Below are positions 27,188 to 48,477 of a stretch of DNA of 64,000 nt, piece after piece; within the stretch, counting starts at the first letter, position 1, and each line of letters begins with the position of its first letter. Position numbers and translations under genes: made by a program. The notes below the pieces were generated by a model that was not told the origin of the DNA, searched no databases, and saw nothing but the letters and a program-made list of their open reading frames with translations. Origin of the DNA: Elsinoe ampelina (taxonomy: Eukaryota); contig ML992502.1 of NCBI GenBank assembly GCA_010093995.1, forward strand, positions 1,171,001 to 1,235,000. The letters are read 5' to 3'.

Positions 27188-27196
27188 TTTGCCACT
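27188..27196 (-). promoter_or_regulatory. PACE-like (Rpn4) element upstream of RPN10
   Basis: AGTGGCAAA (PACE consensus GGTGGCAAA) about 100 nt upstream of a proteasome gene ATG. Confidence 0.5.
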
Positions 27197-27296
27197 CTTT
27201 CGCCCTCATTGCTCACAACTGCATCAAGGCCCCCCTCCAATCACTCGGACTTCAATAAGTGTACCCCAAGACTGTCAGACAGTCATCACCGCAGGC

Positions 27297-28266: not shown

Positions 28267-28418
28267 GCGGCATTCTGGTGTCAAAGGTTTATAGACCATC
28301 AACGTGGCATTCAGCGTTGCTACTCAAGTCCAGGGTATAGCTTCCATCAAAACATGTCAAACAACTCCAATGCGTGCAAGATCCGATCCAGAAATAACCA
28401 TCATCATCAAGTTCCCCA

Positions 28419-31164
28419 TCACCGTAACCTGTCAACATTCGCATAAGGTGTTGGCTCAGCCGTCCTCAACCACTCCCCATTGAAGGCATTCACCAGCCAA
28501 TCACTCAATTCTACAAGACATTAGCCTCATCCCAACCCTCGTCTCTGCAAGATACTTACTCCTGTAAACCACCTGATGCGCCCCATGAAAGTAAATACTA
28601 TGATCGCTATCCGGAAAGATCTGCATATCATAATTACTCACGCCCGCCATATCCAACTTGTCAATCAACGCCAACGTATTCTGCGTATGCACATTATCGT
28701 CCGACGCACCATGCACCACCAAGAACCTGACATTCTTCCCAAGCGCCGCCACGTCACTCACCGACGCATTCCTGTACCCCTCCTCGTTATGCTGCGGGGT
28801 CCGCATATACCGCTCCGTGTAGATCGAGTCGTAGAACCGCCAATCCGTCACCGGCGCGACGGCCATGCCGTACTTGAACGTCTGGCCCGCGTCCTGCTCG
28901 AGGGTTTTCAGCGTGAGGTACCCCCCGTACGACCATCCCCAGATGCAGAGGCGTTCGGCGTCGACGTATGGTTTCGCGGCCCACATCTTGGCAGCCGCGA
29001 TCTGGTCGTGCGATTCCCAGTAGCCGATGTTGCCGCGGATGATGGTGCGGGTGGCGCGGCCGCGGAAACCGGTGCCCCGGCCGTCGAGGGTGATGACGAT
29101 GTAGCCGAGGGAGGAGGCGACGTAGGATTGGAAGTTGATGGTGAAGCGGCGGTCGACTTCTTGGAAGCCAGGGCCGTTGTAGAGCATGAAGAGGACGGGA
29201 TATTTGCGTTTGGGGTTGAAGTGAGGGGGACGGCGCTCGACGAGGTTGAGTTCGTAGCCGTCGACGTTGATGGTCTGATATTGCTCGATGGGGAGCTCAG
29301 TGCGGGAGGCGAGGTCCGCGAGTTCGCGGTTGTCCTCGATGTGAATATCGATCTTGTCGGGGCTGGAGGGGGTATTGATGACTTTTTGCCAGGGGATGCT
29401 GGGTCCGTGGTAGGTGAGGAGAACAAAGCCGGCTGCTTTCGAGAATGAAATGCCATAGTAACCAATCTTGGATGTGTCCGTGATGGCTTTGAGATCAGTG
29501 CCATCTAGCTTGACGCTATAGACATGGCGTTGAGTAGAGTGCTCCTTTGTCGACACAAAGTACACTAGATTGTTCTTGAGATCGAGTGCTGAAGGGGCGT
29601 CCACGACTTCCCACTGCCCTGTCGTAAGCATCTTCGGCTTCGGGTTGTCCAATGGGGTGAAGTATGCCAAATGATCATAACCTTCGTGAATTACAGTGTC
29701 GATATATCCGTCGTCCGGTCTACCATTGTTCTCGTCTTTGGGCACGAATGTAGTCGTCTCAGAAACTTCAAACCAGCCTTTGTCGATGGCGTTGACATCT
29801 GTCGTCCTGATGACATGACCCTTCTGCTCACTTGCGTCCATTAATACGACTTTGAGTACGTCACTTTCGCGATTGGTCTCCTTCACCAACAGCTTGCCTG
29901 TGCTGCCGGCCCAGACCACCTCAGTGATCAGACGATCATCATCGGGAAAGTCATCATCCGTCTTGACTTCGAATTGTTGACCTTTCGCAATGTCGTAGAT
30001 CAGAAGCGACACTACCGACATGGGAGCACCGGCCTTCGGATATTTGATCTCTCGAACGTCAGGGTACGCCTCTTCGCCAGGTTTTGGAAAGTCGCCGCTC
30101 GGTCGAGAGAAGAAGTACTGAACCGGGAAGGTAGGCACCTTGGTCTCATTCGTCCGGAGGAATGCAACATACTTGCCATCTCCAGACCACCATGTACCAC
30201 TTGCTCCGTGAAAGACCTCCTCTTCATAAACCCAATCAGGAATCCCGTAGAAGTAATCCGGTCCGCCATCCTTGGTGATTTGTATGGGTGACTTGTCAGT
30301 GAGCTTCCTCAGGAAGAGGTTGTTGTCGCGAGTGAACACCACAGCATCACTCTGTGGCGACCAAGAAGCTAGCTGAATGCGCGCGTTTGGGTGTTTGGGG
30401 TCCAGAGGCTCTGCGACCTGATGCTCGACATTGAATATCCAGTACTTGGCCGTGCTAGAGTGTCGCCAATTCTTTGTTCGATGTGATTGAATCAGGACAT
30501 GCCTGTGATCCTTGCTGGGCCATGCTTCACTCGGTGTGATCATCTCATTGCCATAGGAGAAGGAAGGATCCTTCATAAGCGTCTTCCTCTTCTCCGCGGT
30601 CGCCGAGGCATCGTCCATATACCGAACGTCTTCGATGACCAAATAATCGCGCCCACCTTCACCTCCTCTTTGTAGCAGTAGCCCATCTTCTCCCTCGGCC
30701 CCTTCAGTCCATGAGATGGCATGTTGCCGCGGGTACCATTCTCCTTGCAGAACCTGTTGCAGCGTGACCTTCTTGCCTGATCCCCTTGTCGCAGTCGCGT
30801 CGGGGTCGTGTGGTCTACTTGACATGGGCTTGTGAGAGCCAGTCGAGATGAACAGACCCAACGCAGCTATCCAGCCTACCAAAGCTACAGCGGCCACAAT
30901 CCAGAACCACTTCCTGGCTTTTTTATCAGCAGGTCTGATCGTCTGCCATACTGCCTTTTCGTCCAGATCGGATTCGCTTTCGGGTGTTCTCGAATTGCGT
31001 TGCTCCCTGGCGCGTAATGTTGCAGCATCCGAGACCTTATCGAGAATAAGTGACGTAGTGGAGACCGAGGATGTGGAAACTCGTGGTCCTGGACCTTCCT
31101 CTATCCTAGAATCGTCGCGTGAGGAAGTCAGAGGCTGTGCCTCTTCATCCTTGTACTGACCCAT
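28419..31164 (-). CDS. DAP2: Dipeptidyl aminopeptidase B (S9B, type II membrane protein); intron 28511-28559
   Basis: TM anchor, DWVYEEE, GWSYGG nucleophile, DDNVH, DSDH. Confidence 0.93.
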
Positions 31165-31811
31165 CGCTAATGAGTGTGGACTAGAGGGCCTAGAGGGCAG
31201 TCCTGGTTGATTTCGAGCTGATTTTTAGGTCATGGTGAACCCAGCGACGTCCAGACTTCGGCAGAGGTCTTTCGAAGGGCAAATAGTCAGAGCACTGGTA
31301 GAAGACAATCGCCTTCAAGCAAAATGATGGTAGAAATTACATGTCCCTTTCACGTTGCAGATGGTAGGCCCTGGATGCCAAGACCTTGAAACGGTGCACG
31401 GGTCCTTTGTTCCGTGAATCCTATTCAGGGTCACTTGCGGCTCAAGCCCTGTGGATCCATGCTACCAAACATGCCCCTATCGAGAGGCAATTTCTTCAAA
31501 CGCGATCATAAGCTTCTATCCCAATGTGAGTCTCGTGCAAAGACGTTCGCTCACGAGTCTGCGCGCTGACATTACACAATGTCACAAGATCGACTGTCAA
31601 GTCTGAAAATCGAGAGCAGTGTGCTAAAAGCTCACGAAACCAAGGATGGCAAGTGAAATGGGTATCATCATTCTTCGCCTAGAGCTTCTCTGCCTGTGCC
31701 TTATCCAAAATGGTTTTGCCACGGGCTAGCGTCTGTGATTTGCTTCGTCATATCGTAAATGGCCGGACTGGTGATAATGCTAGCGGCATTCCCCCTCTAC
31801 TTCTGCCGTAA

Positions 31812-32428
31812 CTAGTTCTCAGGAAGAGGTCTGGGATGATTAGCGGGCGTAGGAACGCATATTCCCTGTAGACGTACCCCAGGTAGTCCTCTCTTATGGT
31901 CCCGACTGCGAACATTTGACCGACTTCGCTTCTGATACCCTTGATCTTCACCCTGATCTGTGTACCCTTTTCTATTACCTGATCCTCATTGTCGGTGAAT
32001 TGAGGTGGCGTGGCATTCCCGTCATACTTGATCTCCGGGGGTATCATCTGGACCTGTCAGTATTGCAAAGAGGTCGATTCCACCACCCGGCTTCTTACAG
32101 CTCTTGACACGAAAACATGCAATGGTCCAACATCCGCGAAGAAGCCCGATGGCGCGACCGAGACCACCATCCCGTCGCAGACCTCGCCCTTGAATGGCCT
32201 CCACACAACAGCATTGAAGGCCACGGTGAATTCCGCCAGCGAGCTCCCTGGCAACACTTTCGGTTCTGAGATGTCTGTGATGCTCACAACGCAGAGCACG
32301 AATTCAGTCCCGGTATTTGTTCCTTCAACATCGTGGTAGAGCTGGTTTTCCACATACTCGTGTGTCTTTTGATCAAAATATGAGGGGTGCAAAGTGATTG
32401 TCCGTTCAAGTTCCCGGAGGAAGAACAT
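31812..32428 (-). CDS. RPB7: RNA polymerase II subunit Rpb7 (2 introns)
   Basis: MFFLRELERTITLHPSYF, WRPFKGEV, GTIREDYLG|PL. Confidence 0.94.
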
Positions 32429-32994
32429 GTCGAGGAAGCGGCGAAGATCCACCCGAGCAGGAGATTGATGCTAACAGCTGCGGTCGACCTTCAGCAGCCG
32501 AAAAATGCTTTGGGTCGTCGAGGTCTGCACTCGGCGTGACAGGCGGGGGGCGCTCGAATCGGGCGTCTAGAGTTCGGAATGAGTGTCGCAAGTATCGCAA
32601 CGAGTGACGAATGGGCGATTCGAAACCAGATCAGCGAATGGACTGCCAGGGATCGGAAGCCTCCTGCGCTGTGCAAGAGGTCGACGGGGGAAGGAGAAAG
32701 TCGTGGTAGCTGAAGCTCGAAACTCACACGACCAACAAAAGTTTAGCCTTGGCATTGGCATTGCGATCTTGACCAGCCGAAGGCATCCTGAACTTTCCAT
32801 TACTTTCCCACCTTGTCTTACCACCCTCCCCCCGTCTGATCTACCTCTCACGTCTTCCGCGAGGATTCAACCATCCTTGTGAGATCTTTGGTCGAGCTCG
32901 TAGACCACCTTGAGACCTCGTCAGCTTCGCCGCAGAGGTCCGACAAAAAGTCCGAGAGCTTTTGAGGCTAGCAAGCCGAGCCATACTAATTACA

Positions 32995-33741
32995 ATGGCT
33001 TTGAACCTCGAGAAGCAGCTGCAATTCGTATGTCATGGTCGGCGCAATACTATTATATTTAGATGGCTGATATCTCACAGTATGGCTCGTACCATCATAA
33101 TCCTGTTCGTCGCCTAGTCAGAGCACTGGCGTCTAAGGAGTGCATTACCTTACGTATGACAGATTAATGTGGCCATTCACATCACCTGCGTTCCCATGAT
33201 ACTCATGACCGCCTTCCTTTTCGTACGCAAGCCCTTGACCATACTTCTACCACACCCGCTGACTCTTTAGGGGACCAATACACCTTCGATACCGATTCCA
33301 GAATGGCTATCGGTGCCAAATCTGCCACCCAATCTCGGCACGATAGCATGTGTGATATATGCATCACTTTATCTGCTGATGGAGCCGGTTGCAGGCGCCA
33401 TGCTTGCACCTCTACTCATTGGTGGCACAGCTGCTGCGAACTATCTCACAACCAATTATGGAGCTACTGCCAACAACTGGGCCATCGCCCTTCACGTCTT
33501 CAGTTGGATCGCCCAATTCGTCGGCCATGGCGTCTTCGAAGGTAGAGCCCCAGCCCTGCTGGACAACTTGGTGCAAGCGTTCTTCCTTGCGCCCTTCTTT
33601 GTATGGCTGGAGATTCTATTCTCGCTGGGATACAGACCAGAACTCAAGTCAAGGCTGGATACGGCTGTGGCGAAGAAGGTCAAGGAGTTTAGAGAGTCGA
33701 AGGCAAATGGCAGTGCTCAGAAGAATGGTGCTCCGAAATGA
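32995..33741 (+). CDS. DUF962 / Mpo1-like ER membrane protein; introns 33028-33080, 33104-33162, 33223-33270
   Basis: MALNLEKQLQF|YGSYHHNP|INVAIHITCVP, WIAQFVGHGVFEGRAPALLDNL. Confidence 0.88.
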
Positions 33742-34084
33742 GCATATCTTGATCGGTCAAGGAGGAGAGGAATATGTACAATTTGTGTGCAGTGACGCAC
33801 ATCTTCCAGTCACCTAACTATTCTGTCCATTAGCAAGCATATTGAATTTATTTCTTGAGTTGTCTTTGCATGATGCTGGTGAATGTGCCCAAGCCGCCCC
33901 AAGTTGATCGGCTCATTTCGGGAAGATGGGTCTTACATAATTTTCTTGGCAAGCTAGTGCCAGAGCTTTCTCTTGCTGTCTCAATCGCTGGAAAAGCGCT
34001 CAAGTGTCAATAGACTCTCTCTCCACTCAACAATCTACATACATACGGGCCGCGAAATCCTCTCGGACTTTCGAAAAGCCCATC

Positions 34085-37024
34085 ATGTTTCGCACCGCCC
34101 TTCGCTCGAGCACCCGAGCGGTGGCCGCCGCCTCTGCTACCTCAAGATTCGGAGTGGTACGTGACAAACCTGCCCGTGTCCACAACACCCACCAATGGAC
34201 CTTCAAACATCTCGAAAACGCCTCAATGGCTTTGCAATATCTATGACAGAGGCTGACAGAGGCATTGACAGACCCGCGCCACCCCAGCCGTCGTCCAGGC
34301 CACCCGAAGCTATGCTGAAGCGAAAGCTTCCCCGACCGAGGTGTCCTCCATCCTCGAGCAGCGCATCCGCGGTGTTCAGGAGGAGGCATCTCTCGCCGAG
34401 ACCGGTCGCGTTCTTTCAGTCGGGTGTGTACAAAATCGAAAAAGAATGGAAGAATAAGGACTGTTGTGCTGATGAACTACAGTGACGGTATCGCCCGTAT
34501 CCACGGCATGAGCAACGTCCAGGCTGAAGAGCTTGTCGAGTATGGCAAACCGACTCGGAATAAATGCTAGATTCTGACAGATGACCAGGTTCGCCTCAGG
34601 TGTCAAGGGAATGTGCATGAACCTCGAAGCCGGCCAAGTTGGTGTATGTCAAAGATCCTTGCATATCATGCCAAGCTCGAAGTTCTAACATCATCCAGGT
34701 CGTGCTTTTCGGTTCCGATCGTCTTGTCAGGGAAGGCGAGACTGTCAAGCGTACCGGCCAGATTGTGCGTTTCTACCATGTTCAGAGGACAGAACAAGTC
34801 TAATGTTTCCAGGTCGATGTCCCAGTCGGCGAGGCTATGCTTGGTCGTGTCGTTGACGCCCTCGGTCAGCCCATCGATGGCAAGGGACCCATCAAGACCA
34901 CCGAAAAGCGCCGTGCTCAGCTCAAGGCTCCTGGTATCCTGCCCCGCCGCTCCGTCAACCAGCCGGTGCAGACTGGTCTCAAGTCAGTCGACGCCATGGT
35001 GCCCATCGGCCGTGGTCAGCGCGAGTTGATCATTGGTGATCGTCAGACCGGAAAGACCGCTGTCGCCCTGGACGCCATCCTCAACCAGAAGCGTTTCAAC
35101 AACTCCAACGACGAAAACAAGAAGCTTTACTGCGTTTACGTTGCCGTCGGTCAGAAGCGTTCTACTGTCGCCCAGTTCGTCAAGACCCTCGAGGAGAACG
35201 ACGCCATGAAGTACTCCATCGTTGTCGCCGCCACTGCTTCCGAAGCCGCTCCTCTTCAGTACATCGCACCATTCACTGGAACATCGATCGCCGAATATTT
35301 CCGTGATAATGGCAAGCACGCCGTCATTGTCTTTGATGACTTGTCGAAACAAGTTAGTATTCATTTCCTTTCCCCTCCCTTAACATTACAGTTTCACCGA
35401 AATTCTTTCGAGGTCTGCCAACCAGTCGAGGTCTGCCGAGCAAGAAACACTACCACACAAAGTCCACTTGCCATTCTGTCTGGGCTGCTGTCACATTTTC
35501 TGGAAGACACTTACCATTATGGTCACCACGCGATGGCTACGTGCTGGTAGTTTTGCACGCCCGGAAGGTTTGCTTACAACACTCCCGCCATAGAATGCAA
35601 GTCCACCTCCTTGCAACCGCCTTGGACGACTCGATTTAACAGGGACGTCAAGACTGCAATCCTACCAGAAAGCGTAACGTCCATTCTACCGCTTGAATCA
35701 CCAAGTCTCCAGTGGTAGTGTTGAGCCTTGCACACTACCAGGATACATATTCCAGCTTCTCTCCACAATTCGCAATATGTCAAGTGGTAGTGCCAACCCT
35801 TGCACGCTACCGATCCCCCAATCCCTGATTCCCGCTGTCTCTGGTTGAGACTCGTTGGTAGTATCAAGTCTTGTATACTACCAGGATCCGCGCCTTCCAA
35901 TCCGTCCTCGGATTTTGTCAGCTGGCAGATGGTAGCACCAAGTGTTTCAACACTGTCAGACTTCTGAGTGATGGCAGTTCCGTCAGTCCGTGGTAGTGTT
36001 CGGCTTCGCATACTACCAGGGCTCATGGTCTTTGTCTGCTTCTGGAGTTATAGGTTTACCAACACGCACGGACGGGCCAAACTACCAGTCCGTTGTGGCT
36101 TCCTCAACATGTTCGCCTCTCCTTTTACAAATTGGAAGTTTCCACATCGAATGGCAGACCTTCTGGACTGGCAGACCGCAGACCTCGGGATACAAAGGCA
36201 GACCTCTGACAGCCATTCCATTTGCACTTACTACCAAACTTTCGAACGTGACTAACAAAATCCCAGGCCGTTGCCTACCGTCAAATGTCTCTCCTGCTCC
36301 GTCGTCCTCCTGGACGTGAGGCCTACCCTGGTGATGTCTTCTACCTTCACTCTCGTCTCCTGGAGCGTGCCGCGAAGATGAACGACAAGCTCGGTGGCGG
36401 CTCGCTCACTGCCCTTCCCATCATTGAGACCCAGGGTGGTGATGTGTCCGCTTACATCCCCACCAACGTCATTTCGATCACTGATGGCCAGATCTTCTTG
36501 GAATCCGAACTCTTCTACAAGGGTGTCCGCCCAGCCATCAACGTCGGTCTTTCTGTCTCCCGTGTCGGTTCCGCTGCTCAGCTCAAGGCCATGAAGCAAG
36601 TCGCTGGTTCCCTCAAGCTATTCTTGGCCCAGTACCGTGAGGTCGCCGCCTTCGCCCAGTTCGGTTCCGATTTGGATGCCGCCACCAAGCAGACCCTGAA
36701 CCGTGGTGAGAGGTTAACTGAGCTCCTCAAGCAGAAGCAGTACAGCCCAATGGCCGTCAACGAAATGGTTCCTCTCATCTACGCTGGTGTCAATGGTCAT
36801 CTCGACAGCGTACCGGTCGCAAAGATTCTCCAATGGGAGTCTGACTTCCTCGCTCAGTACGTATACCCATGCTTGATATGTGCTCCACTCGCTAACACGT
36901 CTACAGCCTCAAGAGCGACCAGGCTGATCTCCTAGCCACCATCGACAAGGAGGGTGCCCTCAGCAAGGACCTTGAGGCCAAGCTCAAGGATGTCGTCTCC
37001 ACTTTCACCAAGAACTTCTCCTAG
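34085..37024 (+). CDS. ATP1: Mitochondrial F1 ATP synthase alpha subunit; 8 exons (34085-34156, 34272-34423, 34483-34539, 34589-34643, 34699-34764, 34813-35352, 36267-36856, 36907-37024)
   Basis: GDRQTGKT P-loop, [42 protein letters not shown]. Confidence 0.98.
35713..36018 (+). repeat. Array of five ~28-nt hairpin repeats with unique spacers inside ATP1 intron 6
   Basis: TGGTAG..CTACCA-type inverted repeats start at 35713, 35785, 35856, 35930 (degenerate) and 35991. Confidence 0.85.
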
Positions 37025-37474
37025 ATTAAAAGGGTGTGCAGACGAGCTGGCGAGGTAGATAGATGAAGTAGCGGCAGCTTGTATTGTAAAGAAGTAAGGT
37101 GGTCCACATAGTCATGTCTCTCCGCGTACGCGTGTCTGTGAATTCGTGGCCCGGAAACGCCTCAGCACTGCCATCCCCGCAGGCTGTCAGCCAAGTGTGA
37201 TGACGATCAGCACATTTCCGAGCGCCTCACGTGAAATTACATGAAGACATTCATGTGAAGACATTCATGGGTGCCTTTTCTTTCGCATTACTGTCCTTCA
37301 CTGGTGGATCGCCTAGACTCTTCCGACACTCGTCGAAGATCCACTGACAACGGGTTCCAGTCAGACACAGCTTGTCCAACCGCCGATTCGCTTATACAGA
37401 ACTACTACAACTTCAGCCTCGCACAACACCTGCGCTTTCGCGCTTACGCCTCGAAGCATAGCACAACAAGCACC

Positions 37475-38722
37475 ATGACGCTCCGAGACTTACTCAAGAA
37501 GAAGCATGACATTGAGAAGAATGGCCACGACATCTCCGCAAAGAGCTCGGACGAAAAGGCAGTACCATACCAGACAGAATTCACCTTTCTTCGAACCACC
37601 ACCTCCGACCAAGAAGTAATACAGCCGCCGTCCTACCCTGGGGATCAAGAGAAGGTTGCACACAAGTTACCTGCTCCCGCCTCGCCTGATCCATCACGAA
37701 AACGCCGCTCATTCTTCCACCCTAAACGCTCCTCCTCCCCACCATCCGGCAACCCACCTCCACCAGCCTCGTCCTCCCCTCCTACCCGCCCAAAGACCGA
37801 CCGCAAGCTCTCCGACCGCTTCTCCACCCTCCGCCTCTCTTCCTCCCGCCAATCCTCACGAGAGAGCGTCCACCTCCCCACCTCCCCGGCCCCCGACCCC
37901 ATCCCCGCGCCTCTCTCCCCCGATGTCCTGAGCGCCAAAAAGTCCAACCCCCTCGACTCCACCGCCCTGACCCAACAAGAAGCCCAATGGGAAGCGCGCG
38001 CGACCCAACTGGCCCTCTCCTCAGCCGTCCTCCCCAACGCCTCCCGCACCCCCAGCCCCAACCCCAGCGCCGCCACCTCCTCCGCCCTCCGCGGCGTAGC
38101 CTCCCAAATCGGCAGCGTAGCCGGCTCCTCCTCGCCCGGCACAGCAACCTCGGCCCGCACAGAAGCCGAGCAGACCTCGGACGAGGAAACGCTCCACCGC
38201 GCCATCACGCTGCACGAAACCGGCGAACTGGCAGAGAGCACCGCCCTATTCGGCCTCCTCGCGAGCCCATCCGGCGCCAACTCTGCCCTCGCACAGGTCC
38301 TCTACGGCCTCGCCCTGCGCCACGGATGGGGCTGCGCCGTCTCCCCTGAAGAAGGTGTGCACTTCCTCTCGCTCGCGGCCAAGAACTCGGCCGGCGTCGA
38401 GTCCCAAGCGCTGAAGGCGGGGATGCACAGGGGCGGCGCGGCCAAGGGGGAGCTGGTGCTCGCGATCTTCGAGCTGGCGAATTGCTACAGGTATGGTTGG
38501 GGGGTGGGCAAGGACGCGCGGGCGGCGAGGGAGTTTTACGAGACGGCGGCGAATTTGGGGGATTTGGACGCCATGGAGGAGGCGGCGTGGTGTTTCATGG
38601 AGGGGTTCGGTGGGGGGAAGGATAAGGGGGTTGCGGCGAGGTATCTTAGGAGGGCCGAGGAGGGGGGCAGGAAGAGGGTCGGGGAGAGTTGGATTTGGAA
38701 GGAGAAGTATAATCCCAAGTGA
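37475..38722 (+). CDS. Sel1-like repeat protein (Nif1/Dsf2-like)
   Basis: AITLHETGEL, LYGLALRHGWGC, IFELANCYRYGWGV, YETAANLGD. Confidence 0.82.
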   Translation: MTLRDLLKKKHDIEKNGHDISAKSSDEKAVPYQTEFTFLRTTTSDQEVIQPPSYPGDQEKVAHKLPAPASPDPSRKRRSFFHPKRSSSPPSGNPPPPASSSPPTRPKTDRKLSDRFSTLRLSSSRQSSRESVHLPTSPAPDPIPAPLSPDVLSAKKSNPLDSTALTQQEAQWEARATQLALSSAVLPNASRTPSPNPSAATSSALRGVASQIGSVAGSSSPGTATSARTEAEQTSDEETLHRAITLHETGELAESTALFGLLASPSGANSALAQVLYGLALRHGWGCAVSPEEGVHFLSLAAKNSAGVESQALKAGMHRGGAAKGELVLAIFELANCYRYGWGVGKDARAAREFYETAANLGDLDAMEEAAWCFMEGFGGGKDKGVAARYLRRAEEGGRKRVGESWIWKEKYNPK

Positions 38723-39339
38723 TGGGGGATGGCTGGGCCTGCTGGACGGGTCGCATTGGAAGAGGAGGAGTGGCATTGTGGGTTTAGCATGGCGTTCTTG
38801 GGATATATAATGAGGGTGACATCTTGGATCGCTCAGGTTGGTTGGGCGAAAAAGTTCATTATGTACTATCAACATCATAGGCCGTGTCCTGTCATGCTCC
38901 GTGTCATGTCTGGTCTTGTGAACTGGCTTGAGATTGAAGGGAAAAGAGAATCATATATCATATTCCATAAAGACATATATCCGAAAGATCCACGAGTCGT
39001 AGATGAGTGTGGTGGTATGCAAGGATCGTGTCATCCTAGTTGAGATGGTATGCAAAAGAGATTCGTTCGTATGCAAGGAAATTCGTAATTCCCAGATTGG
39101 GGCCGCTCTTCATGCAATGTTGGACAAAGGGAATCGTCGCTGTCCGGTTATCGTAATCCATCCCATGTCATGGTCGTGAGACGTATCGTGAGATCGGTGT
39201 ACTTCTTCCCTCCGAGAGAAGGGGCTCGTTAGTCGTTATTGCTTATGCAGTTGTGTTCGTGGTTCGTTATGCTGACTCCGTTGACATGAAGGAGATGAAG
39301 GAACGGTGCTGGAGACCAGCAATGTCGTGGGTATCATGA

Positions 39340-41356
39340 TCAGTTGTTCAGGCTGAATCCCCAGTGGTGGGCGTCGGTTTGTTCATGTTTGTGGTCTCTC
39401 ATCTGTCCGCCCGAATCGCCTCCCTGTTCCGCTGCTTTGCTCTCTCTTACCAGCTCTTTGAACTGCTTGACGACGTCGGCAGGGATCTGGTCCCAAAGCA
39501 GCGATCGAGTGTAGACTTCAGCGGGAGGAGCTTTGGAAATGCTTTCTTCGCGGACGGTAGCTAGGGTCTGGGCAAGATTGCGGCGTGGTGCCATGGTTTG
39601 TTGTGGGTGGTATGCAGCATAGTTGTCAGCAGAGGTCAGACTGTTGTACTCTGACGGGGTGAGTTGGAAGAGCTGTTCGGCCTCTTGCTGATTCGTCGGC
39701 ATTGTCAAGGATCGATATAATGTTTGACGGTTGTCCTGCTGAGGGACATGCTGCTGCCAAGGGTTATGAGCTTGCTGCATGTTCCGCATTTGTTGAGGGT
39801 GCGGCATGTTTTGCAATTGCTGAGGTGGATGTATGGCAGGCGGTTGCATATTGCCGGTAAGTATGTCTGCCCTCGAGTCCTTCAACAAGCTGTCCAGTAC
39901 AGTGTTTGATGCCACCCTGACTTCTTCCGGTAAGCGGGGGATGAAAGGCTTGCTGTTACCCTTGGAAGCCACAAAGGCGCCGCACAAGAGGATCATGAAC
40001 AAGACCCCCGAAGCGATGGGTGGGTCGGTCTCTGTCTTGGCAGGTTTGATGTCTTGTTGGCCCATGACGGGACGTGCCTGTTCAGGCTCGGTAGTAAACT
40101 GACCAGCGTTGCCGGCCATCCACGGCTGATTATTCACGCTCAAAGCGTTCATGTCGGATGTAAAGTCGTTAAAGTTCGTGTTGGTATTCATCATGTATTC
40201 GTTGCCATGGGGGTTGTCGAGTTGCTGTTGCAGGTATGCGATCTTGCGACGGAGGTTGCCAGTGTCCTCGGTATACTTCATGGTAAGTTCCTCCTTCTCC
40301 ATGTCTCGAGCCTCGAGCAAATGAAGAGCATTGGCGTGCTTTTCGTGGAGCTGACGGAACTCGTTCTCCATGTTGCCATGACGGTGTGCCAGGTCGGCAA
40401 TCTCACCCTTGAGACTATTAATCTGCTTCATGTAGCGCTGCTCCTTGACCTCGAGGTCTTCGGTGTGCTGCTTCTTGCGCTGACGTGAAGCGAGACTGCG
40501 ATACATTAGCTCGAACCATACGGTGGACCATGGTGACTTACGCGGCCTCCCTGTTGCGCAGGAGCCTCCTCTGCGCCTTCAACTCCTTAATTTCATCGTC
40601 GTCATGCGCCTGCTCGATGAGCTCCTCGATGTTGTTCAGATTACGATCAGCGGGAATGTCGATACGGGTGTTCTTCTTCCTGACGCCATCCGAAATTGCT
40701 CTGTTTGGCCCGGGACGTGGTGGGCGACTGCCCGGTCTCATGTGACGTGGCAGAGCAGCACGGTTCGGGTACTCTTGTGCGGTCATTGCCATATGGTCCG
40801 GGTTCGAGTAAGGGGACACGGGCGTGTGTACAGTCTGTCCGTCGACATGCTGGTCGATCGAGACAAACCCCGCAGGGACACTGATCTGATGGCCAGGGTG
40901 GACAGCACCAGAGGCTTCACCAATGCTGGCTCCATAGTCGGTCACGTCAAAGTCGTCGCCAGAGGTCTGGTAGGGGTCGAAAGTGAGCGGACTTGCCGTT
41001 CCCGAAGCGTGGTCAAGGTTCCAGCCCGGTTGGTGGTGAACGTGGGCTGATGACGACGACGGGGCAGAGGCCGAGATGGAATTGCGATAGTAATCATCTC
41101 GAAAGGGATTCGTCGAAGCGAATGATGTTTTCCTGTTGATATCGATGGCATGCGAGTGGTGATCCCATTTTTGCTCTGAGCGAGGTGACAGAGCTGCGCT
41201 ATTCATTGAGTCGCGGCGGAAATGGCCATCTTCGGCCATATCTCTCGAATCAGCGCCACCTGTCTCGAGGGAGAAATCATTAGCATCAGCTTCGTCGAAG
41301 AGTGGCAGTGATTCTTCTGGGCCGGATCCGTGGTTGAAGAGATGGGAACGGTCCAT
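39340..41356 (-). CDS. bZIP transcription factor with a C-terminal hydrophobic segment (ada-1/Zif1-like); intron 40496-40541
   Basis: RRLLRNREAA|LASRQRKKQH basic region plus zipper; SGVLFMILLCGAFVAS. Confidence 0.88.
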
Positions 41357-43319
41357 GGTACGAAGGTGAGAGGTCGTGACGAATTGGCGGTGAAGGAGGG
41401 TTTTTTTTGGATAGGCGGGATCAAAGTCCGTGGCGGGAGGCTGGGTCGACAGAATATCAAGCCTTGATCGCCAACAATAATAACATCATGGTCGATTGAT
41501 TCCTCGAGAATAAGCGAATGACTGACGTGGATGATTCAGAGATGCAGAGACGGGTGCGTAGAGGATATGTGGTCCGGATCAGGATGCGGCGTGGTTGCTC
41601 ACAAGGACGAACGGGCAGACGGCAGCATCAGGTACAGAAACACACAGGATGGGGACTCGCAGGGCACAGGAAGACCGGAAGAATTGTCAACAGAGTGCAC
41701 TGCGGCAGGGCACGATCATGTGTAGGAGTCGGGTAGATATGCAGCAAGAATGGGAGGGCGAGAACCAATCGAGGGGAATAGCGTGCTGCCACTCTGGATA
41801 GTGCGAACACAGTGCCTAGACCGAGGGAACCAAGAGGGTACACATGACTGCACGCGCTGCAAGCTCCTCCAATTGTGGTGCGGCCGAGGTGCCATGATGC
41901 GACCGGTTGTTGATGGGCACAGGTGACCTCGACCATTCTCGGATGCGACGCCTGCATTCGAGTCTTGTCCAAGGAATCCTGCTCCTGTACAGAACTACTG
42001 TAGTACATAGTCTTCAAGTTGGCAGAGTGGTCGTCTTTGAGTGCAGCGCGAGTCATTTTCTGATCATGTCCTAGTTGACCTGGCTGCAGATCTCGACGCC
42101 AGACCCGGGTCGCTGTCCAGATGACTTTGGTCTTCATCGGGCGCCATCAAAACATCGAGATCTGCCGTCACCATAAATTTCATCATGAATCCTACCAGGC
42201 CCTGATGATGTTTTGTCGTGGTAATCAAGGTTGACGGGCGAAGGAGGCCCGTACCGCCAAACAAGACAGTGTCTGATAGCGCCTGGACGCAAGGGAGAAG
42301 AAAGCCGGTTGAACAACGCAGGTAAAACCATATACGCGGCCGTGTGGTTTTTGACCAGTCCGAACATGCCTTCAACGCCTGGGCCGCGTAAACTTCCTGT
42401 GTTGAAGTCTGGTACCTGTGGTAATTTATTCTCAGGCATAAACATGTCACCTCGGTCCGCAGCACGTTGCCGCGCACTGCACCTTAATCTCACACAGCGA
42501 ACAAAGGGGATCCTGTCGGTATACAGAGCTTGATCTGGACATGGCGTAACGTCGACGAGGACCAGTCCGTACAGTCTGTGGTACTACAGTGGCTCGACAC
42601 ACACTGCCTGGCAGTTGACGCTGTCTGGTAGTTGGCGTCGCCTGGCAGTAACACTCTTCTCGTCCACCACCCCTCACCTCCATGCACAACGAAGAGTAGC
42701 TGCGCGCGCATCCCTCGTTGTCCATTTCCACATACACCCGTCCGCGGTCGTCAATACCACCCATCTGCTACAATATATTAACATTGACAAGCTCGCAAGG
42801 TTGTGCAATTTTCGGGTCATGCGACGGCGATACTCCGGCTCTTGCACCACAAAGCGTCGTATGCCTCGACGCCTCTCTCGGGACCATGTGGAGGGTGGTA
42901 TACATTAGTATTCACCACACGTCAATTACATCGTTGCCAAGAGCGCATCGTTCCCGGCCGCGCAAGCATTCTGGCCTCATAGCTTAATCACGTTTGCCGT
43001 TGAGGTCAGTGCGGTCCAAAAAACATCCAGACCACATTGTACCTGCGCACGACAAGCATTACCGACGCACGAACTCTTTCAGCGTAATCTCCTCCAATTT
43101 GTTTGGCTGTCCTCGTTTCATCTGCCTGTCTCGTTACGACGACTTGTCGTCCGTCAAACGTCAATCGCCGAGGGGTTGTAGTGTTGTCGTTGTACGTGGC
43201 CTACGCTGCTGTTGATGCTCTGTCAATTATAAGAGGCACGGTAAGTCCTGGTATGATCAAACCATCCAAGCATTCCCAAGCTCTCCAAGCAATCGGCCAA
43301 GCTCTATCATACTACCACA

Positions 43320-45057
43320 ATGGTTAAGATCAACACCTCCTTACTACTAGGTGCAGGCCTCGCTGGCTTTGCTGCCGCACATCCTGGCGAGCACGAACAT
43401 CACGATGAAGCTGCCGTCGCAGCCCAGATCGAATACGGCAAGATGATCAAGAGGGGTCTTCAGAACTGCGAAAGCTCCCCTGCCTACCAGGCTATCCACG
43501 CTCGCGCTCAAGAGCGTCGCTGGGAGAAGGCCCAGAAGCTTCGCCAGAAGAGGGGCATCGCTCTCGAAACCCCATACAAGGCTCGCCTACGAAAGCGTGA
43601 CTCGGCATCCCTCAACACCTTCGCTGCGGAGAACCACAACAAGACTGGAGAGGGCTACACCACCGACACCTCCTCGTCCGACCTCTTCGCTAGCTACAAG
43701 AATTCCTCTTGTATCTTGACTCCCGAAGTCACTTACGGTCCCTACTATGTCTCCGGTGAGCACTATCGCACCAACGTCGTTGAGGACCAGGAGGGTGTTC
43801 CCGTTCATATCGAGTATCAATACATCGACGTCGAGACCTGCGAGGTCGCTACCGGTCTTTACATCGAAACCTGGTCCACCAACGCAACCGGTGTCTATGC
43901 TGGTGTTGTCGCTTCTGGCAACGGTGATCAGTCCGATACCTCAAACTTGAATAAGACCTTCCAGCGTGGTGTCACTAAGGTCGACTCCGACGGCGTTGGA
44001 TTCTTCGTAAGTACTACCAGAAATCTCAAGTCTGGTAGTTCTTGACCACTAATACTACCAGGACGTGCTCTTCCCTGGCTATTACACCGGTCGTACCACC
44101 CACATTCATCTCATGACCCACCTCAACGGTACCGTCTTCGAGAACAAGACCTTCCAATCCGACAATGTTGTCCACGTCGGCCAATTGTTCTTCGACGAAG
44201 ATCTGATTGACGCCGTCAACGCCGTCGCCCCTTACAACACCAACACGCAAACCCGTACCTACAACGCAGACGACTCCATCGCCCAGCAAGGTGCCGACAA
44301 CAACTACGACCCCTTCCCCGACTGGACCTACCTCGGCTCCGACATCTCCGACGGCATCCTCGCCTGGATCGCCATCGGCATCAACAAAACCGCGAGCACC
44401 CAAGTCACCCCCGCCGCCTACCTCACCTCCTCCGGCGGCGTCGCCAACACCAACAGCGGCATGGGCGGCGGCTCCGGCGGCCCTCCCTCGGGCGGCAACG
44501 GCACCTCAGGCGGTCCCCCCTCCGGTACGCCCCCCAACGGCACCGGGTCCCCCGCCAGCGGCAGCGGCAGCGGCAACGGCAGCACGGCCACCGTCTCCGG
44601 GGCCGCCGTCTCCGCCACCGGCGGTAGCACAGGTCAATCCGGCGCAGGTGGGCCACCCAGCGGCACTGCCCCGTCAGGCGGAGCAGGCGCTGACGGTCCC
44701 AGTGGCACAGGCGGCATGGGCGGGCCCAGCGGTGTTGGCTCTAGCGGGCCTAGCGCTCCTGGGAGCAGCTCTGTAGCCACCTCCTCCTCCTCGGTCGCGC
44801 CCACCACGACTTCCGCGCGCGCCAGCACGACGACGACCAAGGCTGGGAAGGCGAAGACGACGACGACGACGACGAAGAAGGTGAAGAGTAAGACCACGAA
44901 GAAGGGGAAGAAGGGCAAGACGACCACCATCACTACGAAGACGAAGAAGGGGAAGAAGACGACTACCAAGACGAAGAAGGGGAAGACTACCAAGACGAAG
45001 AAGGGCAAGACGACGGCGAAGAAGACTAAGGCTACTGCGGCTGCTGGGAAGCAGTAG
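43320..45057 (+). CDS. Secreted intradiol ring-cleavage dioxygenase-like protein with G/S/P linker and K/T-rich tail; intron 44007-44061
   Basis: Signal peptide plus HPGEH, GPYY, GVY, PGYYTGRTTHIH, GQLFFDE. Confidence 0.9.
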
Positions 45058-45354
45058 GGGTGAGCAGGATCGGTGCATCATTTGACAAGCGACAGTGTAC
45101 TGAGAGCATAGCTGGCGTTGTATGGGATATACTGTAGCAGTATCGAGGAAGAGCATTGGACAGGGGCGAGAGCAACAGTATTGCATGGGAGAGTTCTGAG
45201 TCTGGTAGTCATCATTTCATCGTTTGTAGTACGCGTCTTTGAAGCGCCTTAATCACTCCTTTTGGGCGTTTCCCTGAAAAATGTTATTCCCCCTCCGATG
45301 TCCAACGCCGTGCCGTCTACGAAATCTCAGTCCCTGATTAAACCTAAATGGATC

Positions 45355-46422
45355 CTACTCCAGCCCTTCCATCTTCACGTCCTCAAAGTCTGCCTCATCG
45401 TCGTCATCATCGTCGTCCTCCTCGAAATCTTCTGCGGCTGCCTCCTCCTTGATATCGCTTGTCCCGCCCGTCAGAGTGGCTTCATACTCGGGTCGCAATT
45501 TCCACTGTCCTGTAAATGGCCCGGAGCGTATCAACGTGGCTATGCGCTCCATTTCTGATTTGATGAATGCTTCCGGCTGCTTTAGACGACCTTTCAGCGC
45601 CTTCAAGCTCCAGTATCTGTACTCCTTGAAGCATTCCGTGAGCATATCCATAAGCTCCGTAGTCGACACGCGCACGGCCTTGTCCGTCTGTGGCTTCTTC
45701 TTGCCCTTGAGTGAAGGCTTCGACACGAATGTTGCAAACTTCTGACTCGCTGCTAGACCTGGGTGCATTCTGTGATCTACACCGTGGCTGAAGGTCGTGG
45801 TGTGTTTCGGTTGAGCGAGAGCGGCGAAGCGTTTGGCGGTAAGACGGCGATACTCTTCGTTCTCGACGGCGGTGAGGGTCACTTCGTGCTGGAGGTAGCC
45901 CGCAAGCGCGGTCTGTTTTGGGATGCTGGATTTGTAGGGTCGCTTGTTGACTCTGTTGCTATCGTACCGCGAGTCCCTGTCTCGTTGCTGCATCGGTCGC
46001 TTGTCACGGTTCCAGACTGCCTGTCCACCTCGGAATCCTGGCTGATCCTTTTCGCTGAATACGACGGTGTTGTTGTATTGCGTGCGTTGCATGTGCATAT
46101 CGTAGCGTTTCGGCACCTCTGCGTGGCCGGGAATATCATTCAACACAATCTTGAGTTTCTGTGCGCCATTTGGTAGATTATTGTTGTACACGCGCACCTT
46201 TCCCAGCTCAATCTCTTCGTCTTCGGCGATGTTGGCCCAGGCCTCCCAAAGCCATTTCGGAAGTTTTGCTAACCACGCTCCGTTGGTCTCCTCCGAGCCA
46301 TTGATGTGGAGTTCACCAGTATCCTCGTATTCATCCTCGTCAACGGCCATAGGTGTAAGCGCATTCGCCGGATCCGGCTTGATCTTGACGTCCTCCTCCA
46401 TCTTCATGCCGTTGGATGCCAT
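45355..46422 (-). CDS. TFG2: TFIIF beta subunit (Tfg2/RAP30)
   Basis: WLAKLPKWL, IPKQTALAG, winged helix YWSLKALKGRLKQPEAFIK..WKLRPEY. Confidence 0.92.
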   Translation of the reverse strand: MASNGMKMEEDVKIKPDPANALTPMAVDEDEYEDTGELHINGSEETNGAWLAKLPKWLWEAWANIAEDEEIELGKVRVYNNNLPNGAQKLKIVLNDIPGHAEVPKRYDMHMQRTQYNNTVVFSEKDQPGFRGGQAVWNRDKRPMQQRDRDSRYDSNRVNKRPYKSSIPKQTALAGYLQHEVTLTAVENEEYRRLTAKRFAALAQPKHTTTFSHGVDHRMHPGLAASQKFATFVSKPSLKGKKKPQTDKAVRVSTTELMDMLTECFKEYRYWSLKALKGRLKQPEAFIKSEMERIATLIRSGPFTGQWKLRPEYEATLTGGTSDIKEEAAAEDFEEDDDDDDDEADFEDVKMEGLE

Positions 46423-46918
46423 GGCTGTGTTGGCGGACGACGCTTTGATTCGTGACGAATGGAGGGACCGGGTGAAGGATACAGATGGTCTTGGTGGTTC
46501 TTTTATGAGCGCATTCTGAAGCGAGGAATGTAGGGAATGTGGGTCAAGCAACAAAGAAGCCTCGTGAGAAGCTATCTAGCTCTGCTGTGATATATTTGTC
46601 GAGGTCGATCGTATATCGTTCCGCAAAGGTGTTGGAAGAGTACAGATCGAGCTGGTGATTGTTGGTCGAGGAATGTATCGCAGTGCAGGGTAAAGTTGTG
46701 TCTGATAGACGACGAGGCGCACATCCAGCCATGAGGTTCATACTACCAGGCCTGCCCTTATCGATAAGCTTTGCCAAGCTCGCAGAGCCGCATCTGTCAT
46801 TCAAAGACATGACTCTCACCTTCGGCCATTTCTTTCCGTCACAACAAACTATTGATTCACATTTCACCATCTGCGAAATTCTATCAGCTCTTCTCACTTC
46901 GTCACTGCTTTGCTGAGG

Positions 46919-48477
46919 ATGAGTGAAGACGCAGAGCTACAAGCCAAGATCGCTGCCTTGTCTGGTAAGTCAGATTCTAAGCGCCGGATTCACCATTTTG
47001 ACAGAGATGACAGCACGCATCAATCGTGAGAAGCAAAGCAGTGCTCCTGCTAATGCCTCGACTTATCAGCAACCCCCGCGCTGGTCTCCGTATGGTCGTG
47101 GCGGCACTCATCATGCGCCACCATATCGTGGTGGCTATCACAGCAGTCCGCGCGGCGGCATTCACAAGACGGGCTTTCGTCACCGCACACTTGTAAACAA
47201 CAACGGCACAAGCAGCGACAATAAGAGCGGCACGGCGACACCAGAACCGGACGAGAAGCTCAGCGCAGGAATCACCACGCACGATCGCGGGCACATGCAA
47301 TGGACAAACGCAGCAGTATTCGACAAAAAGGTCCAGGCGAAGGTGCAGGCCATGGAAGAGACCGCAAAGGCCAAGCGACAAGCCAAAGATGACTCGCTCA
47401 AGAACAGGGTCGTGGAACATGTGTACGGCGTTCAGACTCCAAGCGCGAGCGTCGCACCAAGCACCGCATCACGAGAGATCATTGTTAACGATCTTCGTTT
47501 CCGCGTTGCACACGATGGGAGCAAGCTAATACGTATCTTTGGTGAGGAACACAATCAGAACACAAACCGCACGTCTCTGAGCAGAACAGACGGGTCAAAC
47601 AAAGATCCCCACAGCACACCCAAAGAGACCAAGGTTGCAGGCGTGAGCTTTGTGCGCACCAAGAATGGGAACCTTCTTCGACAAGGCCTACTTAGAAACA
47701 AGAGGTCCGATCCACAAACTATCTTCCTTTCCAACCATTACTCACGAGACAACAACAGGGTTGACTCCGGAAAGATCCAGAAGAAGCTCTGTGCCGACTT
47801 CACATCAACGGGTACAAGGACATCATCTACACGCATCACCCATCCTGGCAGCCGCTACGCTGGCTGACGTGCTCTCCTACTTGCTACGACTGTACTGACA
47901 TATCTCAGGATCATGCACACACGGCAATCGCTGTCGCTTCAAACACGACATCACTAAACTCGCCATCTGCAAAGATTTCCTTCGACACGGCCAGTGTGCC
48001 GCTGGTGAGGACTGCAATCTTTCCCATGAACCTTCGCCCCACCGCGTTCCTACCTGCCTTCATTTCCTTCGCAATGCTTGCACCAAGCCTGACTGTCCTT
48101 ACTCTCATGCATGTGCTGATCCCAATGCGCCGGTCTGCAAAGACTTTGGTCGCATGGGCTACTGCGAGAAGGGAGCCACATGCACCGACCGTCATGTGAA
48201 CGAATGTCCGGACTATACTAACACAGGCGTTTGCCGTAACAAGAAATGCCGTCTGCCGCACATCGATAGAGCTGGCACTTTGCGAAAGGCAGCGGCCGCA
48301 AAAGCAGCAAAGGGAGAAGACGAGGTGGCATTTGACGTCTCGAGTGACGAGGAAGATTATGATGAGATTGACTCTGATGATGCCGACTCTGAGGAGATTG
48401 AAGACGATGTTGTCATGTCTGGCAATGGTGATGGTCATGAGCTGTCTCAGCAACAAGACTTCATCCCATTTGCCTGA
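46919..48477 (+). CDS. Tandem CCCH zinc-finger protein (ZC3H3/Red5-like), multi-exon
   Basis: MSEDAELQAKIAALS|ARINR N-terminus; five C-x7/8-C-x4/5-C-x3-H-type fingers near the C-terminus; acidic tail. Confidence 0.8.

Follow-up and report, generated by a model that had tools for sequence, protein, structure and literature searches.

The 55-nt intron of an intradiol dioxygenase gene in Elsinoe ampelina has 49 of its 55 nt, the interior, filled by CTGGTAG[T/G] (extended form KYCTGGTAGTWT), a word in strong excess in this DNA that is present there three times, and includes an inverted doublet of it, TGGTAGT-N14-ACTACCA, that recurs with the same geometry in the intron of the ATP1 gene within the same 64,000-nt stretch of DNA (the window). 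The intron resembles a small repeat or a docking site more than it does a splicing switch. The best reading, held tentatively and at rather less than even probability, is that the doublet is a docking site on double-stranded DNA and that the RNA hairpin is a by-product of it.

The intron (44007..44061, + strand) is spliceosomal and of phase 0, reads GTAAGT...CACTAAT...CAG with its terminal dinucleotides GT and AG at 44007-8 and 44060-1, and is delimited by the frame and stop, an RNA joint and PDB matches. Read-through of the exon 1 frame (43257-44006) meets a TGA at 44043. Genes in the window were called on the basis of ORF log-odds and Pfam; when the two dioxygenase exons were searched separately, Pfam returned a weak Dioxygenase_C match alone (E 0.09), and the identity of the gene was settled by a PDB sequence search, in which both exons match intradiol ring-cleavage dioxygenases of solved structure (5vg2 and 6bdj; E 2.4e-9 and 3e-11). 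A contig from the RNA-derived run X4 covers 43277-44006 and 44062-45657 at adjoining coordinates of the record, with exactly 44007-44061 missing, and a piece of one contig from run X6 stops at 44006; these contigs are taken to derive from spliced RNA on account of the many GT..AG joints in them. In the four RNA-derived runs, contig cover is little or absent across 42342-43008. Sixteen introns with RNA support between 27 and 47 kb of the window constitute the confirmed set, among which a CTRAY branch consensus is present. On the strength of this consensus, the branch site of the dioxygenase intron is predicted to be ACTAAT (44048..44053, + strand), with A44052 as the branching nucleotide 9 nt upstream of the acceptor G; the site falls within the 14-nt spacer of the doublet. 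The other short confirmed introns (n=14) measure 46-59 nt as compared with 55 nt here, and the exon flanks, TTC upstream and GAC downstream, display no target-site duplication. The dioxygenase intron is an ordinary short intron that is normally spliced out.

Inspection of the intron sequence places the first word copy at 44013..44021 on the - strand (ACTACCAGA on the + strand, equivalent to TCTGGTAGT on the - strand), where it supplies the upstream arm of the hairpin predicted for the RNA (the MFE helix). The second copy, TCTGGTAGT at 44031..44039 on the + strand, is the central arm common to both possible pairings, and the third, at 44054..44061 on the - strand (ACTACCAG on the + strand), has the acceptor CAG as its final three bases. 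The initial annotation had located all three arms at these positions, and it had likewise described a 28-nt span followed by GGA as in ATP1 units 1 and 3, which is matched exactly: the doublet occupies 44033..44060 (+ strand), the 28 nt run from TGGTAGT at 44033 to ACTACCA at 44060, the next G (44061) is the acceptor base, and the GA beyond it belongs to the exon. Given 23 words in the window, the presence of three within 60 nt has a probability of 0.005.

The ATP1 intron, which is 914 nt long and situated mid-gene, contains five doublet units on the + strand at a spacing of 61-74 nt. Three have exact arms, namely U1 (35713..35740) and U3 (35856..35883), each then followed by GGA, and U5 (35991..36018), followed by GGG; U2 (35785..35812) has the 3' arm GCTACCG, with two changes, and U4 (35930..35958) is decayed, reading TGGTAGC...ACTGTCA with a spacer of 15. 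Four of the five changes in the decayed arms fall on the 3' arm, which is rich in A and C and in which transitions preserve G-U pairing in the sense RNA; these changes would fit a constraint at the RNA level, in a count too small for significance. The spacers of the units are related (6-10 of 14 positions), the inter-unit DNA is partly alignable, and the units are related by tandem duplication, so that the window holds only two independent doublet loci. Tandem Repeats Finder reported 0 rows for this intron, the units being too diverged for it. The base preceding the 5' arms is G, G, T, A and G in the five units rather than the C of the word, which the 3' arms keep, and the ATP1 doublets are hence not fully symmetric. 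No target-site duplication was found around U1, U3 or U5.

Comparison of the dioxygenase doublet with U1, U3 and U5 shows identity at 14 of 14 arm positions, whereas its 14-nt spacer agrees with the ATP1 spacers at 3-6 of 14 positions, i.e., at the random level, leaving the arms, the spacing and GGA as the only common features; the consensus in its extended form, ATACTACCAGG, is found at 35875, 36010, 44052 and 46740. The pattern TGGTAGT-N14-ACTACCA has four matches without mismatch in the window (35713, 35856, 35991 and 44033) and 0 in each of 100 shuffles. When the spacer is varied over k=0-40, exact pairs are found in the 64-kb window at k=14 only; with up to 2 mismatches allowed, k=14 gains 35785 and 42626, and every other k has 0-2 such pairs. 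The probability of a second independent k=14 locus arising by chance, computed from the copies that are not in the ATP1 intron (4 of TGGTAGT, 16 of ACTACCA), is 0.001 for the whole window and 0.004 for the local cluster only. Within the window, therefore, the proposal of a dispersed element of fixed geometry holds, with its single peak at k=14, albeit from two independent loci only; the flat spacer-length distribution that the initial annotation had associated with chance co-occurrence is not what the window displays. Beyond the words themselves, the dioxygenase intron and ATP1 35661-35744 share the order CTACCAGAAA .. CAAGTC .. TGGTAGT-N14-ACTACCAGGA, and their local alignment scores 34.5 against 26.7 +/- 3.8 when the non-word parts are shuffled, a marginal result (p=0.04).

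The word extends well outside these two introns. CTGGTAG occurs in 28 copies in the window as against a mean of 5.4 (sd 2.4, largest 11) over 100 shuffles, T or G comes next in 23 of these 28, and CTGGTAGT has 16 copies where a third-order Markov model predicts 2.1, which ranks it first among the 8-mers of the window other than homopolymers. Copies are found on either strand in introns, in UTRs including a 5' leader, in exons (in three different frames) and in intergenic DNA between both divergent and convergent genes. Across the 13 tabulated non-coding copies, the flanks have K at -2 (12/13), Y at -1 (11/13), W at +8 (11/13), T at +9 (9/13) and K at +10 (12/13), and they are informative in the same sense whichever strand carries the copy. 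Clusters form at three loci, namely the ATP1 intron, the dioxygenase locus (8 words over 4.6 kb around and within the gene, P=0.001) and the pirin gene (5 words over 1.6 kb, P=0.007), and the last 17 kb of the window contain zero words (P=0.0007). At the dioxygenase locus and beyond it, the copies comprise the solo word CTGGTAGG at 42191..42198 (- strand), in the gap separating the dioxygenase from its divergent upstream neighbor; the solo word CTGGTAGT at 42625..42632 (+ strand), between divergent genes and 695 nt before the dioxygenase ATG, which forms the middle of three direct 17-nt repeats, with CTGGCAGT at 42608 and 42642; a copy in exon 1 at 43483..43490 (- strand) that codes A-Y-Q; the solo word CTGGTAGT at 45202..45209 (+ strand), in the stretch from the dioxygenase stop to the TFIIF-beta gene, which is convergent with the dioxygenase; and a solo copy at 46742..46749 (- strand; ATACTACCAGG on the + strand), in the space that separates the TFIIF-beta gene from the one after it, the two being divergent. 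At the pirin gene, a solo word lies at 23564, 47 nt before the ATG, and CTGGTAGC lies at 24148. The scattered single words earlier reported near 23565, 24148, 42625, 45202 and 46743 are accordingly all present, the one at 24148 in a predicted pirin intron. An enrichment in introns, which had been put forward as support for a real element, is not seen, for 2 of the 16 confirmed introns (27-47 kb) hold the word and other copies are intergenic, in UTRs or in exons; the exonic excess is explained in part by preferred codons (TAC-CAG, ACC).

Searches further afield returned no relative of the doublet: among at least 116 metagenome loci with CTGGTAGT-N8-20-ACTACCAGG, none was found, and their spacer distribution is flat, with 10 loci at k=14 as compared with 21 at k=17 and 14 at k=8, the two largest classes. 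The few of these loci, again among at least 116, with 4-6 words lie in GTAC/TAC-rich low-complexity DNA from one sample series. Among the literature matches listed, the items holding both CTGGTAGT and ACTACCAG are unrelated by title and are read as oligonucleotide matches, and those on the E. ampelina genome or its introns name no such motif in the title or the opening of the abstract. Over the whole window, Rfam 15 yields 0 matches at the gathering score and ARAGORN 0 tRNA genes. A likeness of TGGTAG to the tRNA D-arm or primer-binding site was dropped, as were likenesses to PacC (GCCARG), Swi5/Ace2 and the plant-MYB AC-box, no consensus among these four suiting every copy.

At the RNA level, the three arms could be seen as a two-state pre-mRNA switch, or as a regulatory hairpin that masks the acceptor or donor to control removal of the intron. 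Both helices are conceivable (upstream 9 bp, downstream 8-9 bp), and the part of the initial annotation that described two competing pairings stands to this extent, on paper. The predicted energies separate them: the upstream hairpin has -14.7 kcal/mol and the downstream one -9.4, and the partition function gives the central arm a pairing probability of 0.875-1.0 with the upstream copy and of 0.0 with the downstream one. The downstream, ATP1-like pairing thus has close to zero predicted occupancy owing to the greater stability of the upstream hairpin, and the acceptor-masked state, the other part of that description, is not expected. In the predicted fold, the favored helix reaches the 5' splice site (UAAG/CUUG) and leaves the acceptor untouched. 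The intron is unusually well folded: its z is -3.04, equaled by 1 of 200 shuffles (z -2.84 by a separate script), whereas the 14 other short confirmed introns range from -0.89 to +1.43, making it a structural outlier. This structural distinctness and the run of the MFE helix into the donor speak for a switch, as does the TGA at 44043, at which a retained intron would truncate the dioxygenase. There is also a precedent in the yeast COF1 intron, where structure is reported to be needed for acceptor recognition and 3' splice-site use to depend on it (PMC3239191); what the two cases have in common is a short fungal intron with a helix near its acceptor and branch site, and the difference is that the acceptor helix of the dioxygenase intron is predicted not to form. 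A switch, however, requires two helices of comparable stability, and here they are 5.3 kcal/mol apart; transcription makes the upstream arm first, and, in view of this order and the stability gap, the ATP1-like doublet would not be expected to form. Further, the word occurs on both strands and outside transcribed introns, and the RNA-derived contigs show the spliced form. The splicing switch offered by the initial annotation is therefore not borne out, and judged from modeled folds and sequence it is quite unlikely.

The other option offered there, a dimeric DNA-binding site, is the preferred reading and is plausible from the sequence. We infer that the word is bound by a protein and acts at the level of DNA. 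Under this mechanism, the lineage-specific word CTGGTAG[T/G] would be a docking site in duplex DNA for a putative sequence-specific factor, and the inverted doublet TGGTAGT-N14-ACTACCA its cooperative or dimeric form, with half-site centers 21 bp apart, i.e., two helical turns, which would present them on the same face. The copies might have been placed in the intron because it is the sole unconstrained DNA amid the locus-wide cluster (8 words over 4.6 kb). Once transcribed, the central arm would be engaged by the upstream copy, neither the acceptor nor the branch site would be covered, and the hairpins would be by-products of the word copies in the DNA. Recognition of duplex DNA fits better than recognition of one RNA strand, given that the word occurs on both strands and in every feature class. 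A comparable arrangement is the UAS1 of the yeast ADH2 gene, where paired inverted half-sites are bound by two monomers of Adr1. As in homotypic binding-site clusters generally, a short asymmetric word is here found on both strands, clustered and with informative flanks, and inverted pairs stand at a constant distance with the spacer sequence free; unlike in such clusters, the word also occurs in a mid-gene intron and in exons, besides promoters, and the distance between half-sites is long (a 14-bp spacer). The points counted in favor of docking are the word excess, the informative flanks, the conserved spacing with a free spacer, the homotypic clusters and the weakness of the RNA alternative. 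Counted against it are the incomplete symmetry of the ATP1 doublets, the odd placement of a regulatory-site cluster in the mid-gene ATP1 intron, the occurrence of the doublet at two independent loci only, the lean of the changes in the decayed ATP1 arms toward the 3' arm (4 of 5, too few for significance), and the partial origin of the coding copies in preferred codons. Additionally, the marginal similarity beyond the words (p=0.04) favors common descent, i.e., a repeat, over docking.

Such a repeat is a close rival, and a possible one at a somewhat lower probability: the doublet would be a small hairpin-forming dispersed element, selfish or duplicative (MITE-like or introner-like), without a dedicated function, which underwent tandem duplication in the ATP1 intron and a copy of which forms or overwrote the dioxygenase intron, with the solo words as decayed half-copies. 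The five regularly spaced and mutually related ATP1 units and the same-order alignment of the dioxygenase intron to ATP1 35661-35744 are in keeping with it. However, the dioxygenase spacer is unrelated to those of ATP1, so that, under common descent, the arms and spacing would still need constraint; ATP1-type units contain neither a 5' splice site nor a branch site and could not alone have created an intron; target-site duplications are absent around the dioxygenase intron and at U1, U3 and U5, unlike in introns derived from DNA transposons or MITEs; and 8-mer words lie inside ORFs in three frames, where remnants of insertions would disrupt the frame. The introner-like elements of Dothideomycetes are described as whole introns in hundreds of copies that decay into ordinary-looking introns and exceed regular introns in length (PMC3609843, PMC4457414), and as having stable predicted structures (PMC3609843). 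The good fold of the dioxygenase intron matches the last of these features, and this Dothideomycete-type fungus has in it an intron that shares sequence with another intron of its genome. Unlike those elements, the shared part is an 8-13-bp word with its spacing, common to two loci in the window; the intron has an ordinary 55 nt and is not longer than local ones; and the word lies on both strands and outside introns rather than being confined to introns in sense orientation. The symmetrical sister (stw)introns of Hypoxylaceae, as described in PMC8469720, have terminal inverted repeats of 45-55 nt, have spread within genomes, form hairpins and sit seamlessly in exons without flanking duplications. 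The dioxygenase intron shares the inverted-repeat symmetry, the hairpin and the lack of a flanking duplication, but its arms are 7-9 nt, internal and common to non-intronic DNA, and its donor GTAAGT is outside the repeat.

The remaining readings are less probable. It is unlikely, though conceivable, that CTGGTAGK and the N14 doublet are the recognition unit of a lineage-specific word-spreading system that seeds the introns, flanks and exons of chosen loci, one possibility being a zinc-finger/GIY-YIG nuclease family riding spliceosomal introns. Mirusviruses are described as having spliceosomal introns that carry homing endonuclease genes (PMC12768974). In contrast to these, no nuclease-gene remnant was found by Pfam in 16 reading frames of the 914-nt ATP1 intron, where all matches fall below the cut-offs (the best being DUF3553, E 0.13, and a zinc-finger model, E 0.56), and none is present in the 55-nt intron. 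Very unlikely is a look-alike of splice signals at the RNA level, by which the words would be decoys or sponges for spliceosome parts or be derived from intron ends. ACUACCAG indeed reads as a branch-like UACUAC plus an acceptor CAG, its complement contains GUAGUA, the branch-binding sequence of the U2 snRNA, the third intron copy is a real acceptor, and the extended consensus ATACTACCAGG recurs at four places. Against this, no U2 gene is present in the window (Rfam, 0 matches), the word serves as acceptor in 1 of 16 confirmed introns and as donor in 0 of 16, GUAGU is without the donor +5 G that 15 of 16 local donors have, and the copies at 42191, 42625 and 46742 lie between divergent genes, on the 5' side of either start codon. 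Least credible is an account by chance, in which copies of a frequent word happen to co-occur and the spacing means nothing. It could appeal to the commonness of the word in the window, the contribution of preferred codons and the flat metagenome distribution, yet it has to contend with the k=14 coincidence (P=0.001-0.004), the grouping of three words within 60 nt and the absence of any match in 100 shuffles.

In practical terms the outcome is negative for the splicing switch, which the predicted energetics do not support. If the docking site is real, the word would define, for a pathogen of grapevine, a regulator specific to its lineage together with the loci targeted, which in the window are a secreted ring-cleaving dioxygenase and a pirin, and regulatory DNA would be packed within a 55-nt intron. 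Ring-cleaving dioxygenases and pirins are enzyme types tied to the breakdown of phenolics. If instead a word-spreading system were at work, its footprints would include the introns of ATP1 and the dioxygenase, and the hairpin doublet would be a marker of mobile DNA associated with introns. If the repeat reading is correct, a very small hairpin element would be colonizing introns, which would bear on the gain and remodeling of introns in fungi.

The window carries fungal nuclear DNA with short GT..AG introns, its Pfam genes including ATP synthase alpha, TFIIF-beta, pirin, transketolase and others. The dioxygenase gene lies on the forward strand as exon 1 (an open frame, 43257-44006) and exon 2 (44062-45054). 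Pfam returns only a weak Dioxygenase_C match for exon 1 (E 0.09); both exons match intradiol ring-cleavage dioxygenases of solved structure, 5vg2 and 6bdj, with E 3e-11 for exon 1 and 2.4e-9 for exon 2, and the dioxygenase label therefore stands. The gene ends in a long low-complexity tail (44430-45054), Gly/Ser/Pro-rich and then with Thr/Lys-rich, TTKKGKK-like repeats, which is unusual for this family. An ACTACCA is found 2 nt 5' of the start codon (ACTACCAcaATG, 43311-43322), and the upstream region holds three direct 17-nt repeats (42608-42649), each beginning CTGG(C/T)AGT: CTGGCAGT at 42608, CTGGTAGT at 42625 and CTGGCAGT at 42642.

The intervening 55-nt, phase 0 intron (44007-44061, donor GTAAGT) contains three copies of the word CTGGTAG(T/G), which a reading of the sequence places precisely where the initial annotation had them: ACTACCAGA at 44013-44021, TCTGGTAGT at 44031-44039 and ACTACCAG at 44054-44061, the last terminating in the acceptor. 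The ACTAAT in the 14-nt spacer between the last two copies is likely, from its sequence, the branch site, with the branch A at 44052. Splicing was checked by aligning RNA-derived contigs of four runs (X3, X4, X6 and X8) to 27001-47000. In an X4 contig, the segments matching 43277-44006 and 44062-45657 adjoin in record coordinates, so that splicing excises precisely the predicted 55 nt; further, one piece of an X6 contig stops at 44006. Altogether, contigs confirm 16 introns in this region, namely those of the dioxygenase and ATP1 genes and 14 further ones of 46-115 nt. Across the TFIIF-beta gene (45304-46915), 22 single-base differences from the window are listed for the X4, X6 and X8 contigs, while X3 is identical; the former three runs are therefore of a different strain or a close relative.

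The dioxygenase intron has a predicted fold of -14.7 kcal/mol (z -3.04; equalled by 1 of 200 shuffles), and in a comparison of the 15 short confirmed introns, two of them delimited one base off, it is the sole structural outlier (z -2.84, the others lying between -0.89 and +1.43). The favoured fold is the upstream pairing ACUACCAGA/UCUGGUAGU, prolonged into the donor by UAAG/CUUG. It had been proposed that the central arm switches between this pairing and a downstream one masking the acceptor, for which the nearest model is the structure-dependent acceptor use reported for COF1 (PMC3239191). However, the two pairings are unbalanced: with the upstream arm blocked, the downstream helix attains just -9.4 kcal/mol, improving to about -11 (-10.8 to -11.1) when a few flanking bases are included, and the ensemble gives the central arm a pairing probability of 0.875-1.0 with the upstream copy and 0.0 with the downstream one. 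As the upstream arm is additionally the first transcribed, the downstream helix, the one with the ATP1 geometry and the counterpart of that relevant in COF1, should not form in the transcript, and the branch site and acceptor are predicted to remain unpaired. The splicing switch thus lacks support, and RNA regulation of this intron in general appears improbable.

The geometry itself fares better. Exact TGGTAGT-N14-ACTACCA doublets occur four times in the window (35713, 35856 and 35991 in the ATP1 intron, and 44033) as against none in 100 shuffles, and a scan of spacer lengths (k) from 0 to 40 recovers exact pairs at k=14 only. Allowing up to two mismatches, k=14 gains another ATP1 unit at 35785 and, less convincingly, a pair at 42626, with 0-2 pairs at each other spacer. 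The three exact ATP1 copies are tandem relatives, and the independent evidence therefore comes from two loci. Conditioned on the copies present outside the ATP1 intron (4 of TGGTAGT, 16 of ACTACCA), pairing at exactly k=14 would arise by chance with P=0.001 in the whole window and P=0.004 within the local cluster, making coincidental spacing a very remote prospect. Hence, the fixed doublet geometry is real, albeit in a small sample, and the suggestion of a dispersed fixed-geometry element holds on those two loci.

The ATP1 intron (35353-36266), spliced in all four runs, is 914 nt long, compared with 46-59 nt for 14 of the other 15 confirmed introns and 115 nt for the remaining one. In the 16 reading frames scanned with Pfam it shows no recognisable protein remnant. 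Its ends are zipped, in the predicted fold, by GAGGTCTGCC/GGCAGACCTC repeats, with GAGGTCTGCC twice in the 5' part (35410, 35428) and the complement GGCAGACC(TC) three times in the 3' part (36153, 36170, 36197), a pairing that would draw the splice sites together. This entire intron is strongly structured (-278 kcal/mol, z -4.3; equalled by 0 of 20 shuffles). TGGCAG, a one-letter variant of the word, is also frequent in it.

What the dioxygenase doublet and ATP1 units 1, 3 and 5 have in common are the arms (14/14), the spacing and a trailing GGA. The dioxygenase spacer is identical to the ATP1 spacers at 3-6 of 14 positions, the random level, the latter agreeing with one another at 6-10 of 14; therefore arms and distance are kept while the spacer is free. 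This is the pattern predicted for DNA docking at two half-sites with centres 21 bp apart, and we tentatively regard the element as a putative docking doublet; among the readings in the initial annotation, the dimeric DNA site ranks first, yet unproven. A small hairpin-forming repeat, though somewhat doubtful, is a close rival on account of three observations. The dioxygenase intron is colinear with ATP1 35661-35744 (CTACCAGAAA, CAAGTC, doublet, GGA), aligning slightly above shuffled non-word versions (34.5 versus 26.7 +/- 3.8; p=0.04); the word's C is missing from the 5' arms in ATP1, which counts against a docking site; and the ATP1 unit spacers self-pair (CAAG/CTTG), extending the helices to imperfect hairpins of 12-13 bp (-9.4 to -14.1 kcal/mol) within that strongly structured intron. 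Nevertheless, common descent would still have to explain the kept arms and distance with a free spacer, an ATP1-type unit has neither donor nor branch site and could not alone make an intron, and no target-site duplication flanks the dioxygenase intron. Introner-like elements are described as having a stable fold, exceeding regular introns in length and being confined to introns (PMC3609843, PMC4457414); the dioxygenase intron shares the fold and taxon-level setting but not the length, and the word is not confined to introns. Symmetrical sister (stw)introns (PMC8469720) are likewise seamless and hairpin-forming, but their repeats are terminal and 45-55 nt long, in contrast to the internal 7-9-nt arms here.

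The word itself is in marked excess: CTGGTAG is present in 28 copies where 5.4 would be expected, with T or G following in 23 of the 28, and no other 8-mer of the window, homopolymers aside, is as over-represented as CTGGTAGT (16 copies versus 2.1 expected). G or C runs of at least 8 are very common (e.g., ~7580-7640; homopolymer 8-mer 44 versus 2.8 expected). The flanks are informative, giving an extended form KYCTGGTAGTWT. Both strands and every DNA class carry the word: besides three copies in the dioxygenase intron, and six strict copies with five TGGTAGT/TGGTAGC arms in the ATP1 intron, it lies between divergent genes (42191, 42625, 46742) and convergent ones (45202), bearing out the reported recurrence in non-coding DNA, in the pirin leader (23563), and in exons (23738, 23791, 24731, 43483), there spanning three reading frames. 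Just 2 of the 16 confirmed introns contain it; it is therefore no general intron feature, and the intron enrichment envisaged at the outset is not seen. Mimicry of splice signals by the word seems quite unlikely. Copies cluster around the dioxygenase gene (8 in 4.6 kb, P=0.001) and at the pirin gene (5 in 1.6 kb, P=0.007), and the final 17 kb are devoid of them (P=0.0007). Among known kinds of element, homotypic binding-site clusters best fit these statistics, the factor here being putative. Four of the five strict pirin copies (23563-25128) share one orientation (ACTACCAG, sense strand): the leader has one, the poorly conserved N-terminal part two, in two frames, and a C-terminal D-Y-Q the fourth; CTGGTAGC lies within a predicted 65-nt pirin intron (24129-24193).

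A metagenome scan for CTGGTAGT-N8-20-ACTACCAGG gave at least 116 loci; among the matches listed, k=14 accounts for 10 of 116 in a flat spacer distribution, and word clusters are absent except in low-complexity DNA, so the element is not widespread. Among the papers listed by a literature search for the word, none deals with it, the matches being of oligonucleotide type, and those listed by one on the E. ampelina genome and introns include nothing on such a motif. The wider interest lies in the dense coverage of chosen E. ampelina loci by a single eight-letter word.
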